From contig CDPCPM010000037.1 of the NCBI GenBank assembly GCA_976551045.1, forward strand, positions 22,506,001 to 22,570,000: a DNA stretch of 64,000 nt. The letters run 5' to 3'. Every line of letters starts with the position of its first letter. Within the stretch, counting starts at the first letter, position 1. Below, one piece after another: positions 767 to 57,802 of this stretch. Source of the stretch: Glaucostegus cemiculus. Its lineage: Eukaryota. Position numbers and translations under genes: made by a program. The notes below the pieces were generated by a model. The model made no database searches. It was not told the origin of the DNA and saw only the letters and a program-made list of their open reading frames with translations.

Positions 767-925
<159 letters not shown>

Positions 926-4822: not shown

Positions 4823-5059
<237 letters not shown>

Positions 5060-15100: not shown

Positions 15101-15280
15101 TTCCTGGATAAATCAGAAGATGTGCTATTAAAGCATCAGGCCAATATCAATGAACTCAAACGGACTTTACAGGAGTCTACTAATATTAAGATAAGTCACG
15201 GTGACCGGGAAAAGAAATTAACAACTTCTCCATCAAAACCTAAAGAGAAGGAGCAGGAGGAATCGGAGAAGCTCAAAGAG
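15101..15280 (+). CDS. EPB41L1: EPB41L1 exon, spectrin-actin-binding (SAB)-like region ([25 protein letters not shown]...EKLKE)
   Basis: Polypyrimidine tract plus aag acceptor, gtgggt donor; 180 nt; matches 4.1N '[23 protein letters not shown]'. Confidence 0.94.
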
Positions 15281-19508: not shown

Positions 19509-19616
19509 TCTGCGAGGGCTGAAGAGGAGGTCAAGGAAGAGCCTACTTCTCAAGTGGGTGCCATTGCCTTATCTCTGGAAGCTTCAGCAAAGAAAAGTCT
19601 TGCATCTTCCCCTGAG
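19509..19616 (+). CDS. EPB41L1: EPB41L1 exon (SARAEEEVKEEPTSQVGAIALSLEASAKKSLASSPE)
   Basis: ctttctatcag/gttgac; 108 nt, phase 0-0; purine-rich coding-like composition; joins the giant exon in frame. Confidence 0.72.
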
Positions 19617-20101
19617 GTTGACCTTTTCAGTTATATATTTAACAACACACTGAATGATAGTTTTGTCAAAATTCATCTCTGCTTATTTAATGATGGTTAT
19701 TTTAAAATGGCAGAACTGACATCAGGGGGGTGATTTTGTTTTAACCAGTTTGCTAATATTTTCTAAAGGGTTAATATTTATTGATGTAAAACAGCTAAGC
19801 ATTAAAATTAGACAAGTGTAAAAGATGTTTGTTACTGTGAAATTGGTCATTTACCCATTTATGATTCATTTATTTCATCATTAATTGCTGTATTGAGGAC
19901 TTAGAAAACTAAATCATATTACCATGTATTCACATTTCACAGAATTACTAAAATGTATATTTAGAAAATTTAGCTTCATCCAATTGTGGCAATTCATACT
20001 TCACCATAAAGCAAAATGAAATAAATGAAATGCATGTCTGTTGCTATATTCTTGTTCATGGAATACTGTGATGTTGACAAGTTTCTGTATTTGAAATGTA
20101 G

Positions 20102-23029
20102 GGCTCTGATGAATGGGTTATAATAGAAAAACAAGCTTCTAGGCTAGAAGAACTAGTTGTAGTTGAAGTGAAAAGTGACAGAAATGAATCCAAAGAAGAA
20201 GAAGCAGTTGAGGCTATATCACTTGTTTGTGACAAAAAGCAAATTGATTTAGAACTATCATCTCCTGAAATGGAGCTTATAAAAGAAGCAATTCACAAGA
20301 ATGAGCCACGTGAAGACATTTCTCCAGTGACTGAAGAAATTTGTATTCTATCTGCTGAACAAAAGGAAGACTCTTCTGAATCTATTGGTTCAATAGAAAA
20401 GACGATGACGATAACTACTCCATTGCATTGCACAGAGTTATCGACGTCAGATCAACAAGAAAATCTTGAAGTGGAAAAACACAAAGCTGAATATGAAGTT
20501 GCAATTGAGAAAGTTTCAGATGAAGAGTGCTTAATTTCTGACCACAGACATGTAGATGATACCTCAGTTTGCAGCTCAGAATCATTAGAACAAGTTGCAA
20601 TACATACCAGAGAAAAGCTATCTAAATCCGAAGAAGATTTAAAATCAGACACCCAACCATGTAAAGGTGCACAGTCGATGTTGCCTGTGCAAATGACCGG
20701 CAGAGAGGAATCCATATCTGTTTCTCCGGAAAATGGTGAAACCAGGTCTGAGGAACATAAAGACTCCAAGGACATTTCTCCACAAGAGGGTGACAAAAAA
20801 ACGGATTCTCTGACAGCTAACCAAAAAGGCCTAGGATTTCAAGGAGAAAGTCTGCAAGAAGTGGAGGCGGAATTGCAAGCATTTAATCAAGAAGAAGAAA
20901 TTGAGCCAACTTTCCAGATAGATAACCACATATTTACGTCAATTCTCTCTGTAATGGACAAAGACGAATTGCATTCTGAAAAAGAGAAGGCATCAGACAC
21001 CAAGGTAGCTATCCCAAAGGACTCCATGTCCATTTATGAAGAGAAGCATGACTCTAAATCCGGTTATTCAGTAGCTGTAAAGGAATCAGAAATAATAAGT
21101 GAAGTAGAAGGCCAAGCTGCTTCCCCATTGGATACCATTGAATCTCACATGGCTGAAGGGGCTTGTGCCTTTGAAGAAGATTCTGATATGTCTCAGCCCT
21201 GTTCAATGCGATGGGATAAAAGTGAGTCAAGGCCATTCTCAGAAAAAGAGTCAGAAACATGCGATTTAAAGCCTCATTCTATAGGGGAAGAGGAAAGATC
21301 AAACTTGGAAGTACACAGAAAAGATCCAAAGCCATGCACAAGAGAAGCCGCTGAGAAAAAGAGAAAGCCAGGTACGCTGGAGGACGAGGGGCAAGAGCCG
21401 GGGCCAGGTACGCTGGAGGACGAGGGGCACGAGCCGAGGCCAGGTACGCTGGAGGACGAGGGACACGAGCCGAGGCCAGGTACGCTGGAGGACGAGGGAC
21501 ACGAGCCGAGGCCAGGTACGCTGGAGGACGAGGGACACGAGCCGAGGCCAGGTACGCTGGAGGACGAGGGACACGAGCCGAGGCCAGGTACGCTGGAGGA
21601 CGAGGGACACGAGCCGAGGCCAGGTACGCTGGAGGACGAGGGACACGAGCCGCGGCCAGGTACGCTGGAGGACGAGGGACACGAGCCGCGGCCAGGTACG
21701 CTGGAGGACGAGGGACACGAGCCGCGGCCAGGTACGCTGGAGGACGAGGGACACGAGCCGCGGCCAGGTACGCTGGAGGACGAGGGACACGAGCCGAGGC
21801 CAGGTACGCTGGAGGACGAGGGACACGAGCCGAGGCCAGGTACGCTGGAGGACGAGGGACACGAGCCGAGGCCAGGTACGCTGGAGGACGAGGGACACGA
21901 GCCGAGGCCAGGTACGCTGGAGGACGAGGGACACGAGCCGAGGCCAGGTACGCTGGAGGACGAGGGACACGAGCCGAGGCCAGGTACGCTGGAGGACGAG
22001 GGACACGAGCCGAGGCCAGGTACGCTGGAGGACGAGGGACACGAGCCGAGGCCAGGTACGCTGGAGGACGAGGGACACGAGCCGAGGCCAGGTACGCTGG
22101 AGGACGAGGGACACGAGCCGAGGCCAGGTACGCTGGAGGACGAGGGGCAAGAGAAAAGGCTATGCTTACCCAAGGACAATGGAATAGGGACAAGGCCATG
22201 TATACTGGAAGGTAATTGTGAAAAGTTCAATGACAATAAAATGCTCAAGCAGCTTTCCCAGAGTGGTGCCAATGATTCTGTTCAAGTTGTGTGTCAGTCA
22301 AGTGACAGGGATGAATTGAAAGATTGTTTTCCAAGGACAGCGAGTGATGAATATAAAATATGTTCCTCTGCGCATGTATCATCAATGTTGGACTGCTCAA
22401 AATCTACAAACGTGACTGAATATAACAACTTGGCATCCAATGAACTGTTATCAGAAGCGAGTCAAAATCAGTTTCTTGTGAACAACAAAGAAGATTCCAG
22501 AACAGAATTTCAAAAGGAATATTCTGAGGGAAAGTTGTCTGAACTGGGTTCACCTGATCTTGAGTTGTCAGACCAACAAGTGGTCCTTAGAGCTGAATTT
22601 TCTCATATTGAAAGATTGCAACCATCAAAAATAGCTCTGCTTCCATCCAAACCAAGAGAGGAAGAGCCCAAGTCTAATAAAGTTACTGAACTTGAGTACA
22701 TCAGAATTACAGAGCTGCCAAAAGTTGATCCTCTGAAGCCAATATGCAAACCAGGAAAAGAGAGCGTCTCAGTTAAGCGTGACAGAGAATTTCCAAATCC
22801 ATCCGAGCAGCTGGCAGAAATTTACTCTTCAGCCAAGCTTAAAGAGAGATATCCAGATGTGTATGATATGGGGTCGGCTACTCTGAAGGATAAAATATCA
22901 TACTTTGAATTGAAATTGGGAGAAAATATTTACTTAAAAAAGCCAGTCAAAGTGTTGGAACAGGCTGCACAGATTTCTGAAGTTGGATCCCCGGATTCAG
23001 GCTGTGAAGTGGAATTGACAGAAGCAGTG
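20102..23029 (+). CDS. EPB41L1: EPB41L1 giant exon, 2,928 nt / 976 aa, acidic and probably disordered (GSDEWVIIEKQ...CEVELTEAV)
   Basis: tgtag acceptor at 20100-20101 is in frame with the 20168..23137 ORF; gtg|gtaact donor; no stop over about 3 kb of AT-rich DNA; phase 0-0. The exact donor is inferred. Confidence 0.85.
21368..22159 (+). repeat. Coding minisatellite: 22 x 36 bp (ccaggtacgctggaggacgagggacacgagccgagg = PGTLEDEGHEPR)
   Basis: Directly visible tandem array of 792 bp; terminal units slightly diverged; four consecutive internal units carry CGG instead of AGG. Confidence 0.98.
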
Positions 23030-23604
23030 GTAACTCTTCATGTGAATTATCACAAGGAAACATTGTTCCAGCATGTTTTGTCAAATAGCATCCTACATCA
23101 TACAACTTTACATAGCTTGAAACAAGTTTATTTCTGAATTGCTATTTTATGTTTTAGTCATGTGTATTGCTAAATGCAGAGCATTGTATTCAATCCGTTA
23201 ATTTGCTTTCCTTTTTATTTAGACCATTTAGAGTTTTGCAACTGCAAATGTCAATCGATCTACCACATTGACCTTTGGCAGCAATGAGAACAGTCGAAGC
23301 TGAAGTGTCTCCTAAAAACAAAATGTCAATGCTTTTCTCACATTGCTAGAAAGTTGCATTTTGATGATGCTCTGAAAAAAGAATAGGCTGTGACTTCCCC
23401 TTGCTTAGTTTATTTTCTCTCTCCACTGTTCTGCTCCTTCCTTTTTAAGCATACTAATGCCTGTCAAAACAATTATTAGTGGCTGATTTCCTGCTATTGC
23501 TGTGGTGCTAGCTCCCGAACTGTTTGCTGCTGTGTCATTTAACAATGAAGACTCGTTTCTGAATTCTCCAATTCAGCTTTTAACTAATGTTTTTGTCTGT
23601 TTAG

Positions 23605-23742
23605 ACTAAACCTGCTGTTCATGAAAGCACTTCCGAAGACAGAGACACAAAATCTTCAAGAGAAGCTTCAAAATCTCCAGGGAAGACCTCAGTGAAAGGG
23701 GAGACCTCAGAAGATTCTGTTACTTCAGCAACTATATCCCAG
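23605..23742 (+). CDS. EPB41L1: EPB41L1 exon (TKPAVHESTSEDRDTK...DSVTSATISQ)
   Basis: actaat branch-like motif, tgtttag acceptor, cag|gtgttt donor; 138 nt open, phase 0-0. Confidence 0.7.
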
Positions 23743-24008
23743 GTGTTTAACTCTTGCTAAACTTCATAATTAAATGTGATTTAAAAGTTAATTTACATAT
23801 CATTTATTTTGTATTTTATAACTGCAAGCTTTCTGTGGTTTCTGCTAAGAGCCTGTTGAATTTATTCAGTGTTTCTGGGTTTCCCTCTTGCAATCGGATG
23901 TATCATCCTAATCACAAGTGTTCCTCTGGTTTTGCCAGCATGCCACCTCTATATTGAAAAGCAAGAACCATATTCTATTAATTTATGAATATGCTCTTCA
24001 TTTTACAG

Positions 24009-24059
24009 GAGCTGTTCTCTTCACATGAAATAAGTGATGAAGAATCTGCCAAATCCAAG
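24009..24059 (+). CDS. EPB41L1: EPB41L1 small exon (ELFSSHEISDEESAKSK)
   Basis: ttttacag/aag|gttgct; 51 nt open, phase 0-0. Confidence 0.6.
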
Positions 24060-24299: not shown

Positions 24300-24686
24300 A
24301 GCACTGAAGCAAAGCAGGATTTGCAAAGGAGGTCCTTGCTGGCCAAACAAGAATCTGAAGAAGCGATGGAGCAGATGCAGGAGCTTGTGACCCAGACAGT
24401 GGTGGTTGAACACAAACATTCCAACATCATTACAAACTCCTCAGGACCTGCTGAAGTCGAGAAAGAATTCTTAGCATCTGAAGGAATTGATGGAGTATCG
24501 GAAGGGAAGAAGCTATCAACACAAACTAAGGTTATTAAACAAGAAGAAAATGACAGTGCTGTGTCTGAAGCCAGTACTCCAAGTACCAAAAGTACTGAAA
24601 AGCAGCTCACTCAAGAGGACGGAGTTGATCAGCACAAAAGCAATGACCAAGAGCCTGAAGGCACCCAAGAGAAACCTCAACATGAG
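24300..24686 (+). CDS. EPB41L1: EPB41L1 exon (STEAKQDLQRRSLLAKQE...QEKPQHE)
   Basis: Long pyrimidine tract plus cag, gag|gtaacc donor; 387 nt; coincides with ORF 24321..24698. Confidence 0.8.
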
Positions 24687-31607: not shown

Positions 31608-31688
31608 TCAGTGAAAGGGGGATTCTCTGAAACCAGGATTGAGAAGAGAATCATCATCACAGGAGATGCTGACATTGATCAAGACCAG
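31608..31688 (+). CDS. EPB41L1: EPB41L1 CTD exon ([27 protein letters not shown])
   Basis: tccag/cag|gtacaa; 81 nt; hallmark 4.1 CTD sequence. Confidence 0.97.
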
Positions 31689-32838
31689 GTACAAAATCTA
31701 TAATACAACCATTTCATCATGTGATTCTTGCACAGGCCTATGGTGTTGAATTAAAGGAAAAGGAACTTTTATTTACATAGTGATATTTTCAGTGACCACC
31801 AATAGGAGAGAAAATAGATTTTGCTGCTTTCTGTAGTGATATGGCAATATATAGGAAAATAAGTACTGACTATGTAGTGCAGTAGAACGATTACGTGGAG
31901 GAAAATATTTTGCACTGATTTCACGAATGCAGTATGTTGTATGAATGAGCACTTGTGTAGACTGCAGTTTAACATACTGATGTCCCAATACAGCTTATAT
32001 TTCAATTATAAATAAAGTATGCTTTCTGGTAATCAGTACAATGGTCATGTCAATACTGGAAGCTGTTGTTGATACGTTCTGAACATCTTAAATATTTACG
32101 AGAGAGAGAAAGATTGAGATTCATAGTTGATATTAATTTTCCACAGTTATTAATTTTCTATAGTTAATATTTTTAATTTTCAAAAATTAGTAACCCAAAT
32201 TTTAACTCAAACCAGTGGTATGGATGGAGCCGGTGAGGGTGCAGTCATTCTCAGTTTGTTGGATTTAAACCCCTGGGACTATCTGCATAGACCTGTCAGT
32301 CTCCTGGTAGAATTCAAAGAGCAGCACCTGTGTGGAGGGTGGGTATAGATTATGGAGCTGCTGTTGAGGACCCAAAGAAACAGTCTCCAACATCTAACAG
32401 AAGGTTGGGGTTCAGACAGACTTCTTGGTTGCCTTCCCAAAACACCCTTCCTGTGACTTGTCGAGCTGTTCTGATCCTTCCTTTGCTGGCTGACATCTTG
32501 TATTTTCTGGAATTCCGTTCCATTGGCATGAAGGTGGGTTCAGAGATTTCAAGTCACTGCCATGTCATTGTTTCTGGGGTCAAAAATGGGGTTGGTAGGC
32601 ACCTAGATTCCCTTTTGCCTGATATCTTCTGCCACCTTTATTGTTAAGGTCACCATATACGTTTAAAAATGATCCAAGAAAGATTATGATTTGTAATCCA
32701 TCAGACAATGTGTCTTTAGTTTCTAAACTCTACAGAACAAAGAAATCAGTGTGTTACTGTAATTCCTTAATTTATCTAGCAACCAATTTTCAGTAGGGCT
32801 CTACCTTTGTGTATCACTAATTAAACTGTGCACTCTAG

Positions 32839-32955
32839 GCTCTGGCCCTTGCAATTAAGGAGGTGAAACAGCAACACCCTGACATGCTGGTGAAAAAGGC
32901 AGTTGTTTATAAAGAATCAGAGTCTGAAACTGAGCAGAATGCAAAGGAATCAAAG
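32839..32955 (+). CDS. EPB41L1: EPB41L1 CTD exon ([39 protein letters not shown])
   Basis: ctctag/aag|gtatgt; 117 nt; matches 4.1N '[24 protein letters not shown]'. Confidence 0.96.
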
Positions 32956-50689: not shown

Positions 50690-51180
50690 CTCCCGACACC
50701 CCCACATTCCCACCCACCCCTCTCCCCCACCCCACCCCCATATCCACCCCACTTCCCCCACCCCACCCCCATATCCACCCCACTTCCCCCCTCCCCACCC
50801 CATATCCAACCCTACCTACCTCCCCAATCCCTCCTCCCCACATCCACCCCCACCCCACCTCCAACCCACATCCACCCCACCTCCTCAACCCCTCCTCACC
50901 ACATCCACCCTCACATCCCCTACCTCACTTCACCTTACTCCACCCCCACATCCACCCCACCTCCCAATTCCTCCTCCCCACATCCACCCCACCTCCCAAC
51001 CCCTCCTCCCGACATACTCCTCACCTCCCCACATCCCCACCTCAACCCACATCCACCCCTCCTCCCAACCCCCCCTCACCCCACCACACCCCCCCTCACC
51101 CCACATCCACCCCACCTCACCTCCCCACACCCCCCACCTCACCCCACACCCACATCAACCCCTCCTCCCCCACCCCACTT
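50690..51180. repeat. C-rich low-complexity/minisatellite tract (core catccaccccacctcc) in AAR2 intron 1
   Basis: About 490 bp nearly devoid of G on the + strand, with a recurring ccccacatccaccccac unit. Confidence 0.9.
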
Positions 51181-51876
51181 ATTTGACCTTTTCAGGAGAC
51201 CTTTAATGGGCTGCCACACAAGACATTAAACAAGCACACATGGCATTGAGAGTGATGCATTGAGGACTGGTTAACGGGCAGAAAATTGAGAGTAGGAATA
51301 GAAGGTAACAATTTTGGGTGGGGAGACTATGACAAGTGGGGTCCAGCAGCAAGGATCTGGGCTGGAAATGCTCCATTGTCCCACTGCCCCCATTTAATTT
51401 AATGAGCATAAACTTGCTATGTGTAATGTATTGCTCTATCTATTCGCGAGGTCCCCTCCCTCCCTCCCCACCCCCCCCCCCCAAAGCTGTTCACAATCTA
51501 TTATCAATGATTTGGATGGAGAGGGTCCTGTATCCAAGCTGCTGCTAATACTAGGCTTGCTGACAATGCGGGCTGTGGGGAAGCACTGAGGCTTGAAATA
51601 TATCTCTTTTTCATACATAGTCAGTGCTTGGCCTCTAGCATTCTGTGATTGAGATGCCACAAGTTCATCACCCTCTGAATGAAGAAATTTCTCCCACGTT
51701 GAAGCTGTAGGGAAGCATTTGTAACAATCAGTATTAAGTGCTGTTTCATGACAACTGAGTCCTGGTAATGTATTCCACGTGAGATACCATGACAAAGAAT
51801 GTTTACATGTATTGGATAGTAATGGTGCAGCAAAGTAAATTATTCTTTCTCTCTTTCTAGAACACAGGTTAAAAAC

Positions 51877-52633
51877 ATGGCTACTATGGAAATGGATCAA
51901 GAACTTGCCAAAAAGCTGTTCTTTGAAGGAGGCACTCTTATCATACTTGGAGTTCCTGAAGGCACTGAATTTGGCATTGATTATAACTGTTGGCAATTGG
52001 GACCAAAGTTTAAAGGGGTAAAGATGATCCCACCAGGAATCCACTTCATGCATTGCAGTGCTGTGAATCGCAGAGGTGGTCAGGTAACAGGACCACGCAC
52101 TGGTTGTTTCTTTCATATAAAGCAGAGGGAAATTCTTGTAAAGCGATGGGACAAGATAGAGGAAGAAATTATTCTGATGGAGGTCTCTGAAGAAGAGTTG
52201 GGACGGATAAGAGAGAATCTGACTGAACTTGACAAGTCCTTGGGGCCATATCCATATGACACGATGAAAAGATGGGTCTCTTTGACCAATTTCATTACTG
52301 ATCCCTTGATTCAGAGGCTGCAGCCTGTAAGTGGAAAAATCAGTGCTTTTTGTGAAGTTCAACCAGAACTAGTAATGCCACATACAAAAGATCGAGTGGA
52401 GCAGAATCTATTGCCTTATGATACATTATGCAAAAGTTATGAGGAGGGTTTAGCTAGGCTGCCCAAAATGAAGATTAAGGCTGGTACAGAGATCAGATTC
52501 TCAAAGATTCCAAGTCGGAAGTATCCAGAGGGGGCATCCCCAGCTGAAATAACAAAATATAATATGGACTTCAGCTATGCTCTGGAAACTGTAATAAACC
52601 AGCGGTACTCATCAAACCCGAAAGATATTCTAG
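51877..52633 (+). CDS. AAR2: AAR2 (U5 snRNP/PRPF8 assembly factor) first coding exon; exon begins at 51861
   Basis: MEMDQELAKKLFFEGGT...VPEGTEFGIDY...GPKFKGVKMIPPGIHF...LGPYPY are AAR2 motifs; ctttctag acceptor at 51860, Kozak aacATGg, g|gttagt donor; 757 nt. Confidence 0.97.
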
Positions 52634-53484
52634 GTTAGTATTTAATGAAATGTATGAGCTGCTTGTTGAGATGATGTGATATACAGTTTCAAATGATAGA
52701 AAGTTGAAAAGTATTTTGATATTCCAATTGAATTGACTGGCACCAGAGTGATAAACTGAATTTCTTCCTTTGTGTTGTGTGAAAGATATTCAAGTTCAGA
52801 GCAAACTCACTAGGGATGAATGACAGAAAAGTAGGGCTTTAGTTTCATGATGGGATCTCCGAGTTAATTCAAGGCAACCTGAGAGAATAAATTAATCGAA
52901 AGTCTTCTACTGTTTTGGTCTAAATTGAAATTTGCATTCCCTCTCTGAATCCAATGAATACAGAGTTGGTATATCTGTGTTCTGTTTGCTGTTGCAGTCT
53001 TGGTTTGCCTTATAAAATGACAAGTTTTAGAATTGGCCGTCATTAATTCTTCACAATGTAATGGTGTTTGTCACTAATAATCTGAAAACACAACTAACTT
53101 TGGAGTTAGCACGTGTACATAGTTTAGCACAGAAATTTCAAAGTTGCCAGTGATTCAAAGCTTCTCCACAGGCACTGCCCTTTGCACAGTTGGAAATGAT
53201 TTTGAATATACAAATTTAAGCTATTTTCAAATCAACTACACTTTAAAAATAATTTATATCTTATAACAAAGCAAACTGCTGCAGATGCTGTAACAAAACA
53301 CAGAGTAAGTAACCATTTTGCAGAACAAGGATAGCCCTGAGCTTCTAGTTGCCTGTCATGAATTTTCCATGATTAAAAACCTTTCTGTCTTTGGTCTCCT
53401 ACACTATTCCAACAATGCCCAATAACTTTGGGACTCATTACTGAACTTAACAACTTCTGATAACCAGTTTTTCAAGTTTTTGTC

Positions 53485-55100: not shown

Positions 55101-56515
55101 GCTTTATTTTGTACTCTAATTTTTTTCTTCCTTTTTAACCTTTTCATGATTGTCAAACATCTTGAGTGGACTAAATTTTTGCCTGCTTTCTAAATTTTCT
55201 GAGTTCAGACCAAAAGTCTGTCATCGGGAAAAAATAGTTGTTTCTCTCTCCAGATACTGCCAGAGCTGCTGAGTGTTTCTTATGGTTTTCCATAATATTT
55301 CTGAATACTTTATGCATAGTTGCATGATGACTGAGTGGTTTTAATACTGTACTAAACTCTTAATTAATGTTTGGCATTCTATATAGCCCCAAAAAGATCA
55401 TTTAACTTGCGTATAATGTAATTCTCTGATTTTCTTTTTATAAAGCTGATTTATGATATTTCTACTGCCTTAATCATTGCACCATCTGTGTAATGCTTAA
55501 TTTAAAAAATTGTGCCTTCTCTTTCTGGTTATGCTGTATGACAATTCTGTAATATAATTGGCTTCAGAACCTGCTTGATGATATTTAATTGCTGGATGCC
55601 ATAGATCACCTTGAACTCACAGTAGAAAGCATTAAAAAAAATGACAAGTTCCTACTGCAGAGCTAGCTAGATGTTTGTGGAGGGTTTTGTTTGAGGTCAG
55701 CAGGAGATATTGCTGCTTAGCTTATGACTACAAATTCTGAGCAAATGTTCTGCTTTGAAGATGGGTCATGTGTTGAAAGAATATTTCATAACTTTGGGTA
55801 CACTTGAGTGGTTTGAATACTGTTTAAATTATGGGACAAAGGCTTTATTTCTGAGTATGCCATTGCAAGTTTTGATCAGTAAAATGTAATAAAATTATTG
55901 AAGATGAACTGGTCACTTCATATAATTTCACTTTGAGTGTAAACAAAAATGAAACTAATAAATAGTTTCATAAAGCCCTGTTACTCAAATTAGAATCTGA
56001 AGAATGATCTTCAACTGCGATACAGTTGGGGGTATACTGTGAGATTCTTGAGAGCACAGATTTTGGCTAATGTTTCAGTGCCATGCTAAAGACTACAGTC
56101 AGGTGTTTCCTTTCACATAAGATGTAAACAAAGGAAGTTAATGATACCATGACAAGCTCCTTTTTACTGGATGTTGCATTTCCTGCATTATAACCCCAGG
56201 TTGTGAAAGTTGCTTTGGTATTTTATTTGGAACATATTTTCAACATGACTGGTAGAAATTTGCAATTGAACTGCAGGGTAGAATGTGATTTTTTAAAATT
56301 TTTTTAACATAGTGAATGCTTCTGGATTATGGCTTAAAAACCACAAGTAACATGGAAAGAAATCCATTCAGGCAAATTTATTGCATAATGTTGAGTTTAG
56401 GACATTTTCATTGAATTACATTGACCTAATAATATGATTTACCTCTCAGTGATGTTCCATAAACTGTTTTGTGTTTTTAATGTAATGAACATGGATTTTG
56501 TTGTGTTACATACAG

Positions 56516-56745
56516 GGGAACTGCAGTTTTCTTTTGTGTGCTTCCTGATTGGTAATGTCTATGATGCATTTGAGCACTGGAAAGACCTACTTCGTCTACT
56601 CTGTCACTCTGAGGAAGCTGTGACAAAACAAAAGGATCTCTATTCTGCCCTCATCTCTGTCCTCTATCACCAGCTTAATGAAATTCCTGCTGACTTCTTT
56701 GTGGATATAGTCTCCAAGGATAACTTCCTAACCACAACTTTACAG
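56516..56745 (+). CDS. AAR2: AAR2 second coding exon ([23 protein letters not shown]...[17 protein letters not shown])
   Basis: tacag/cag|gtagct; 230 nt; phase fits the previous exon; conserved AAR2 C-domain motifs. Confidence 0.96.
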
Positions 56746-57802
56746 GTAGCTTATCTAAATCATATTTATTGAGGTAGAAAACGATTGAAATCAAACATTA
56801 AAGCTTGTGTTTAGATATTTCACATTTCTGAATACTTTATGGAGAGCCTTTTGTGATTTGAATAAAATTTTAAGCAGTGCCACACAATTATTCTGTATCA
56901 AGTTAGAAATCTGTTTTTAAACTTGTACAATGGCTTATTGGAGGATTCACAAATTTTTTTCTGTTAATATTCATTGACTATAAATACAAACCTTGCTTCA
57001 GTAGTGTTTTAATTCATTTGCAGTACTAAAAAATGATTTGTACTTTGCTACAGCTGCCAAGATTCACCTCAGATCTTCTCCAGGGTAACGAGATTATTGC
57101 TTGTTTATATATTTCATAATGTTTTCTGCATGTATTTACAAGTAAAATCCTATTTGGAAAATTGTTGATGTATCATCAAGATCTGTTTTCCTTCAAGGAG
57201 ATGTGACAGTGAATTTGGCACAGTTTGTTATTTATTCTAATCCTTGATCTCACCGTGAAACTTGCGTCAGACATTAACTTGCATTGTTAGGGCTGTTCAA
57301 AGTTCACAGTCCAATCCAGCAGGTGAGGGATTGGCTCAGAGGTTTTTCCCCCTATCACATAAACTAAGTAATAATCAAATGACTCTCAATTGGATTTCAA
57401 ATGAAATGTTCACTTTTGAAGTTCTACAATTTCAAGAATTTGTTATATTTTGTGTCCATATTTCTTTTGGCCCTTGAAATTAAATTTTCAGGACAAGATA
57501 GATTGTTAGTAATTACCATTGTCAGACTAACTTCTCATGCTGGTGTTTGTGGGTTAATGTATGGACAAATACTTCAAGCTCTCACCATTGTAATGAGCTT
57601 CACACTGAGTCATTTGGCGAAGACCACTGCATAGCACACCATGGAAGAACTGCGTATTTCTGACTGCAGTTTCTTATCTCTGTTTTTAAATACCAAATCT
57701 TGGATTGTGAAAGCTGTTTGAATTTACTCCATGTTATCGTTGAGCATTTCCTTTCCATTGTTACCCCTGTAGATACCAGACCAAAATATTGGTTTATATG
57801 GT

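Follow-up and report, generated by a model that had tools for sequence, protein, structure and literature searches.

A giant alternatively spliced exon in the 4.1N gene of Glaucostegus cemiculus, with conserved candidate ATG8- and actin-binding motifs near its ends

The EPB41L1 gene of Glaucostegus cemiculus, which encodes protein 4.1N, contains a giant alternatively spliced exon with counterparts across the jawed vertebrates (Table 1). The reading that we prefer, with a probability of roughly 0.55, is that its product is an acidic, likely disordered spacer between SAB and CTD, with a start that likely docks GABARAP/LC3 and a far end that may attach to actin filaments. Inclusion would insert this long spacer in the manner of the giant ankyrins, and a conserved island at the start of the exon (island 1) would dock ATG8-family proteins. 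Receptors held by the FERM domain and CTD would thereby be coupled to ATG8-marked membranes, as with the giant ankyrins, while the helix of a second island would tether the long isoform to actin filaments. A more ambitious version of this reading, which we consider rather unlikely, is that a giant-ankyrin-parallel isoform has existed since the origin of jawed vertebrates, in which the exon supplies a LIR for GABARAP/LC3 and, in the case of sharks and amniotes, also an actin helix replacing lost SAB function.

The domain order FERM-FA-SAB-CTD is present in the 64,000-nt stretch of DNA that was analysed (the window), with the giant exon placed between the SAB and CTD exons. Four 4.1 loci were found in this genome, and since the SAB of all four named bony-vertebrate 4.1N queries scored best at the present one (53-64 bits versus at most 38 at the paralogues), we assign it as the 4.1N (EPB41L1) orthologue. 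Downstream, at approximately 51.8-56.8 kb of the window, EPB41L1 is followed by AAR2, an adjacency that we take to be known synteny; a C-rich low-complexity array at 50700-51180 lies ahead of the AAR2 exons. Our exon model, with two small-exon boundaries set by eye, sums to ~1,593 aa within the window, compared with the figure of about 1,608 aa given in an initial annotation. Over the giant exon the nearest database protein is that of Pristis pectinata (83%), and both exon ends, when searched against the animal's own genome, recovered this locus alone. Between SAB and CTD, the paralogues 4.1R, 4.1G and 4.1B have acidic open frames of no more than 150, 151 and 184 aa, respectively, in which the three motifs described below are absent; the giant exon is therefore specific to 4.1N in this genome.

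Table 1. Positions of the EPB41L1 features discussed, and of neighbouring AAR2, in the window.
Feature	Position	Strand	Basis
Last FERM-C exon of EPB41L1/4.1N; earlier exons upstream of window	827..924	+	tblastn 97% to shark and chimaera 4.1N; AG/GT
FERM-adjacent (FA) exon	4864..5039	+	tblastn, exon model
SAB exon; donor joins 23605 directly in skipped form	15101..15280	+	PF04382 match; relative's RNA
108-nt cassette exon ending KSLASSPE, ahead of W motif	19509..19616	+	tblastn; relative's RNA
TGCATG, ~66 nt upstream of giant acceptor	20031..20036	+	sequence
Giant cassette exon, 976 aa, acidic	20102..23029	+	translation, splice sites, relative's RNA
Island 1, GSDEWVIIE...LEEL; LIR-like W-V-I-I core at 20114-20125	20102..20173	+	alignments
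36-bp minisatellite, 21.9 copies, encodes PGTLEDEGHEPR repeats	21367..22153	+	repeat analysis
Island 2, LKDKISYFE, SFM-like (short linear F-actin motif)	22883..22909	+	alignments
Island 3, SPDSGCEVELTEAV at exon end	22988..23029	+	alignments
Next exon; acceptor of included and skipped forms alike	23605..23742	+	relative's RNA
51-nt cassette exon, alternatively used	24009..24059	+	two loose-end read classes behind 23742/23743
4.1 CTD exons (31608-31688, 32839-32955)	31608..32955	+	PF05902, tblastn
AAR2 exons	51823-52635, 56425-56769	+	PF20981, PF05282

The initial annotation had described a stop-free, phase 0-0 exon with canonical splice sites that inserts 976 acidic residues, and translation of the window bears this out. 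The exon spans 2,928 nt and 976 codons without a stop, within a stop-to-stop frame of 20102-23137, and is bordered by a canonical acceptor (...atgtag/GGC) and donor (GTG/gtaact). Since composition predicts ~29 and ~20 stops in the non-repeat halves (421 and 292 codons) and 0 are present, the open frame is not due to chance; the other two frames of these halves contain 29/44 and 10/33 stops. Aspartate and glutamate make up 241 of the 976 residues (25%), for a net charge of -131. No Pfam family was found on the exon, a PDB search with its first 30 aa returned 0 matches at E<=10, and in the ESM Atlas the 5' end had no match and the 3' end a single low one (0.75). A minisatellite array whose copies are 99% identical takes up about 27% of the exon (262 aa). 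Diverged, older units of the same kind number 17 in Pristis and 26 in Mobula, and the pattern was absent from the other chondrichthyans checked; the array thus looks recently homogenised in Glaucostegus cemiculus. The middle of the exon cannot be aligned between sharks and tetrapods, and in all likelihood would work by its length and charge and not by its sequence.

A cryptic or decaying open frame without function would be in keeping with low inclusion in three raw-read RNA runs and with the non-synonymous nature of 15 of the 26 codons changed relative to the species that supplied this RNA (27 of 43 differences used). However, the frame is open in all 12 chondrichthyan proteins examined and the motifs are kept as far as mammals, and this conservation largely refutes such a reading, to which we give next to no weight.

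Splicing was followed in four RNA runs (X1, X14, X15 and X16) of a relative, aligned on 22200-23760 and ~95% alike (43 differences in 829 nt). The skip junction from the SAB exon (15280) to 23605 was found in all three raw runs, with 91 reads in X14, 44 in X15 and 5 in X16, and sequence comparison identified the loose-end consensus ahead of the acceptor as the end of the SAB exon. The main form thus lacks the giant exon and, along with it, the 108-nt exon 19509-19616. Inclusion is represented by an X1 contig that joins 23029 to 23605 and removes a 575-nt GT..AG intron. In X1 the depth of this contig is 43.6, that of the skip piece 95 and that of the next exon 140, corresponding to roughly 30% inclusion; this run was tool-labelled 'probably DNA', and we read it as RNA because it has spliced joints and no intron coverage. 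Sense-strand depth in X15 is 2-6 on the 3' part of the giant exon versus 64-66 on the next exon, with coverage stopping by 23100. X14 shows thin coverage that runs into the intron on both strands, and this looks like background. The expected junction 23029>23605 is therefore present in the X1 contig and absent from the raw reads at a 3-read threshold, so that inclusion rests on one contig plus coverage, while the 5' junction, 19616>20102, occurs in annotated models of many species. In this relative the giant exon is a cassette, with skipping as the main form and inclusion as the minor one, as had been supposed when the exon was first called skippable. Annotated skipped forms also exist in a chimaera (P0027), a bat (872 aa) and a grouse (743 aa). 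The level of inclusion varies between runs, and it is probably cell-type regulated, with neural cells as the probable setting. The TGCATG upstream of the acceptor is a candidate for what we presume to be an Rbfox-type element, and the intron downstream of the donor has a GCATG core at 23071. Further along the transcript, reads from 23742 go to the 51-nt exon or straight to 24300 in the relative's RNA, and shark models also skip 24300-24686, which is thus a further cassette exon.

Annotated models of other species raise a different possibility, that the giant exon serves chiefly to end or to begin alternative transcripts and gives rise to CTD-less or FERM-less proteins: Pristiophorus models read past the donor to a stop, and those of Mobula and Mustelus begin within the exon. 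Against this, the X1 contig splices out of the exon at its donor, X15 coverage ends close behind it, and the downstream intron contains no AATAAA or ATTAAA. Moreover, full-length FERM-giant-CTD models are available for Pristis, Scyliorhinus, Stegostoma, Chiloscyllium and Rhinoraja and for most tetrapod matches, and split models would be expected from short reads over a weakly covered, repetitive exon. We find such a role highly improbable, and treat the exon as a cassette in what follows.

The 3' third of the giant exon, used as a query, matched proteins of Mobula, Pristiophorus, Mustelus and Callorhinchus. A search restricted to long proteins (1,016-3,236 aa), whose query also held the 5' motif, listed the best 120 of 5,623 matches, and nearly all of these are long 4.1N models of ~1,350-2,540 aa from sharks, rays, a caecilian, turtles, crocodilians, squamates, birds, marsupials and a bat. 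A profile search with the junction motif yielded 34 representatives, and the 10 that were named include bichir, paddlefish, gar, three teleosts, Xenopus, axolotl and two seals; jawless or paralogous proteins were absent among these 10. One profile match, P0372, was rejected as a chance repeat hit. Across 22 proteins the length of the insert ranges from 621 to 1,601 aa, and the giant donor lies at the same place in a bird and in a second tetrapod read-through model (TEAV/VTL-like ends). Since orthologous inserts sharing the 5' motif occur in chondrichthyans, ray-finned fishes, amphibians and amniotes, the insert is, on the evidence of these protein models, ancestral to jawed vertebrates, an age that the initial annotation had offered as a possibility. 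The existence of the exon is not itself new, as it is already contained in RefSeq/Ensembl models; there, the long 4.1N proteins of sharks and rays go by the names 'titin-like', 'remodeling and spacing factor 1-like' or 'uncharacterized', and the present assignment corrects these misnomers. In Callorhinchus, newer RefSeq models (P0016-P0021) stop inside the exon repeats and an older 1,849-aa model (P0023) is intact, which suggests that the repeat holds an assembly frameshift.

Within this drifting chain, conservation is confined to short islands. Compared in 12-aa segments, the exon in the window and its tetrapod counterparts have an identity of 0.43-0.49 in the first 24 aa, 0.61 at aa 961-972 and at most 0.24 elsewhere. 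The two islands towards the 3' end, the minisatellite at 21367-22153, and the start of the small exon at 19509 with its co-skipping all go beyond the initial annotation, which had singled out the exon's start, GSDEWVIIEK, as a candidate conserved motif. That start is indeed the most conserved part of the exon, and its core appears to fit published LIR/GIM descriptions. Among 123 proteins (many of them isoforms, and bird-heavy) the 5' motif and the DSG motif of island 3 were each found in 118, and the SFM-like pattern in 117. At the level of species, island 1, KSLxSSPE/GSxxW-V-[IFL]-[IV]-E, spans the small-exon junction and is present in 28 of 30 proteins, both misses being models truncated at the 5' end. 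Since fish, Xenopus and axolotl proteins were retrieved via the 5' motif, which was also part of the query of the long-protein search, the count for island 1 is biased upward, partly by construction. Islands 2 and 3 were absent from the queries of the long-protein search. Island 2 (LKDKISYFE, or VASKIKMFE/VANKIRIFE) is present in 12/12 chondrichthyan and 9/9 amniote proteins and was found in 0/3 amphibian and 0/6 ray-finned proteins (one of the latter being partial). Island 3, SPDSGCE, occurs in chondrichthyans and tetrapods (SVDSGS in a marsupial) and in none of the six ray-finned proteins. It resembles what we take to be a DSG phosphodegron (beta-TrCP degron); the shark form lacks a second S/T at the usual degron spacing, and we regard this reading as a weak lead. 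Separately, five ray-finned inserts (P0347, P0350, P0357, P0358 and P0370) share RP[QRN]SLNLG and a late PPVK/PPRP stretch that is not in the shark exon, and RPxSLxL presumably resembles kinase-docking or 14-3-3 sites. An [FY]LQM[DE] motif is common to amniotes, bichir, paddlefish and gar.

Each of the three islands is close to an end of the exon, where splicing signals could also constrain the sequence. One could thus propose that the exon is only a spacer and that its conserved ends are splicing-regulatory RNA elements and not protein motifs. The intron behind the donor is conserved as well: of the 35 read-on codons in 23030-23137, 30 match the Pristiophorus read-through model in a by-eye count, which is above the exon average, and this stretch is likely to be a conserved splicing element. 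However, substitutions within island 1 are chemically conservative across all jawed lineages (I, F or L at X2, and I or V at the last core position), and the SFM-like island of amniotes lies 111-142 aa inside the exon. RNA-level constraint as the sole explanation therefore seems quite improbable, and we continue with islands 1 and 2 as candidate protein motifs. The same intron also contains CTAAC/ACTAAT at 23453 and 23583.

The LIR core [WFY]-x-x-[ILV] takes the form W-V-[IFL]-[IV] in 28/30 proteins. The residues before the tryptophan are SDE or SEE in sharks and fishes and SEH, a weaker fit, in amniotes and the caecilian. The run upstream of the core is rich in S and E, as is typical of phospho-tuned LIR flanks. 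Compared with the GIM, [W/F]-[V/I]-x-V, island 1 departs at the last core position, which is mostly I, with V in 11/121 proteins and in Xenopus. Most GABARAP-selective LIRs have V or I at this position, and two validated examples, PLEKHM1 EDEWVNVQY and JMY ESDWVAVRP, resemble island 1 in their acidic lead, in a W followed by V at X1, and in a core that ends on V or I (PMC5538626). In the extended LIR of the ankyrin type, as described in PMC8727931, an acid stands at +7 (or +6) and a hydrophobic residue on the following helix. The shark exon lacks the ankyrin +7 acid, with Q/R at +6 and A at +7. In amniotes (reptiles, birds, marsupial, seal and bat) an E stands at +6, accompanied in turtles, the crocodilian, birds and squamates only by L at +10; STX17 has the same E and L.

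Even with the exon as old and as built as described here, the W motif could bind a partner outside the ATG8 family, such as an adaptor with a hydrophobic pocket or the protein's own FERM domain, with the likeness to a LIR incidental. LIR-like cores are common by chance: the exon contains 7 where 5.0 are expected, and half of the shuffled exons have an xLIR match. The conserved unit is also wider than a LIR, with S30, L31, S34, P35, E36, G37, S38, W41, V42 and E45 invariant across the small-exon junction, and the absent acid at +7 points the same way. On the other hand, the core fits the GABARAP-selective profile in its invariant W, in V at X1 and in closing with I or V, and the S/E-rich lead is what would be expected of a phospho-tuned LIR. 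We judge a non-ATG8 partner unlikely. Since a single W motif has been kept for ~450 million years while its surroundings drifted, we read W-V-I-I with its acidic/Ser lead as a LIR that probably binds ATG8-family proteins, with GABARAPs as the probable partners.

Island 2 resembles the SFM, for which the consensus VxxLxxxFE has been reported (PMC13364712). A hydrophobic P1, F at P8 and E at P9 are present in 12/12 chondrichthyan and 9/9 amniote proteins and in 0/9 amphibian and ray-finned proteins; at P4, where the consensus has L, island 2 has K. Supplementary Table 3 of PMC13364712 lists candidates with K/R at P4 in ITPKB, DENND2C, LAD1, OPHN1 and ARHGAP42, among which DENND2C IKQKISQWE, ITPKB VNQKVGMFE and LAD1 VASKRHLFE look like island 2. 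As with the motifs of that study, island 2 is set in a domain-free region, and it is patchy across vertebrates. The same list includes ANK2 1990-1998 and ANK3 2715-2723, and no EPB41 gene was found in it; EPB41L1 was not found in the text or the four searchable supplement files of PMC13364712. Island 2 lies 49 aa from the exon end in the window versus 111-142 aa in amniotes. A complex prediction of aa 908-956 with beta-actin (P0316) gave 0.45/0.26/0.08, with the median under the mark; it was run with neither controls nor alignments, and we count it neither for nor against. According to a review, the 4.1N SAB cannot form a spectrin-actin complex (PMC8473747). Since this SAB does not bind spectrin-actin, an SFM helix formed by LKDKISYFE could supply the long isoform with the actin contact that it lacks, an idea that we hold tentatively, at somewhat less than even odds. 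With respect to actin itself, conventional actin genes are clustered in tandem in this genome (G000:C377:1.68-1.77 Mb and C59:17.13 Mb) and have nearly all of their coding sequence (334 aa) in one exon; several intronless actin-like genes occur on other contigs.

A long rat isoform of about 1,550 aa, 'brain 4.1(L)', was reportedly described by Yamakawa et al. in 1999, and annotated long mammalian EPB41L1 proteins include those of a seal (XP_035920505.1, 1,591 aa) and a bat (XP_019588398.1, 1,625 aa). Long mammalian 4.1N shares with the present exon the gene, the position between SAB and CTD, the start motif GSEHWV[FL]IE and the SFM-like and DSG islands; it differs in that its insert is ~660-680 aa versus 976 here and its middle is unalignable. 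From these other mammals, and not from rat sequence, we infer that the insert of rat brain 4.1(L) is the giant exon. In mouse brain, a faint 165-kDa 4.1N band has been noted as a possible larger splice form (PMC7550591), and this band has been unexplained so far. An EPB41L1 'exon 14' is described in PMC12946277, to which we assigned no counterpart among the exons here. Our literature search, which fell short of subscription papers, found nothing on the conservation or motifs of the giant exon, and it is this motif anatomy, consisting of candidate motifs, that is new.

The giant ankyrins, ankyrin-G (480 kDa) and ankyrin-B (440 kDa), likewise owe their size to one very large alternative exon in a membrane-skeleton adaptor, carry a GABARAP-binding LIR (PMC8727931, PMC7564214) and, comparable to island 2, carry a predicted SFM (PMC13364712). 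They are products of unrelated genes, and the ANK3 exon measures 7.8 kb versus 2.9 kb here; neuron specificity and binding have been shown for the giant ankyrins, whereas the 4.1N motifs are known from sequence. We therefore place the giant exon in the class of long 4.1N isoforms, as giant-ankyrin-like in its working and not an ankyrin. Glutamate receptors, KCC2 and IP3 receptors are anchored by 4.1N, although the SAB of this protein is without spectrin-actin binding (review PMC8473747). If the more ambitious version of our reading is true, the long isoform would link 4.1N-held AMPA receptors, KCC2 and IP3R to ATG8 membranes and F-actin, and work on the 880-aa form would have missed both the LIR and the actin helix. 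The optional exon, some 450 million years old and with candidate motifs for ATG8 and for actin, provides a defined isoform to look for. Within the 4.1 family, the U3 cassette exons of 4.1R, 4.1G and 4.1B are alike in being alternative acidic exons between SAB and CTD.
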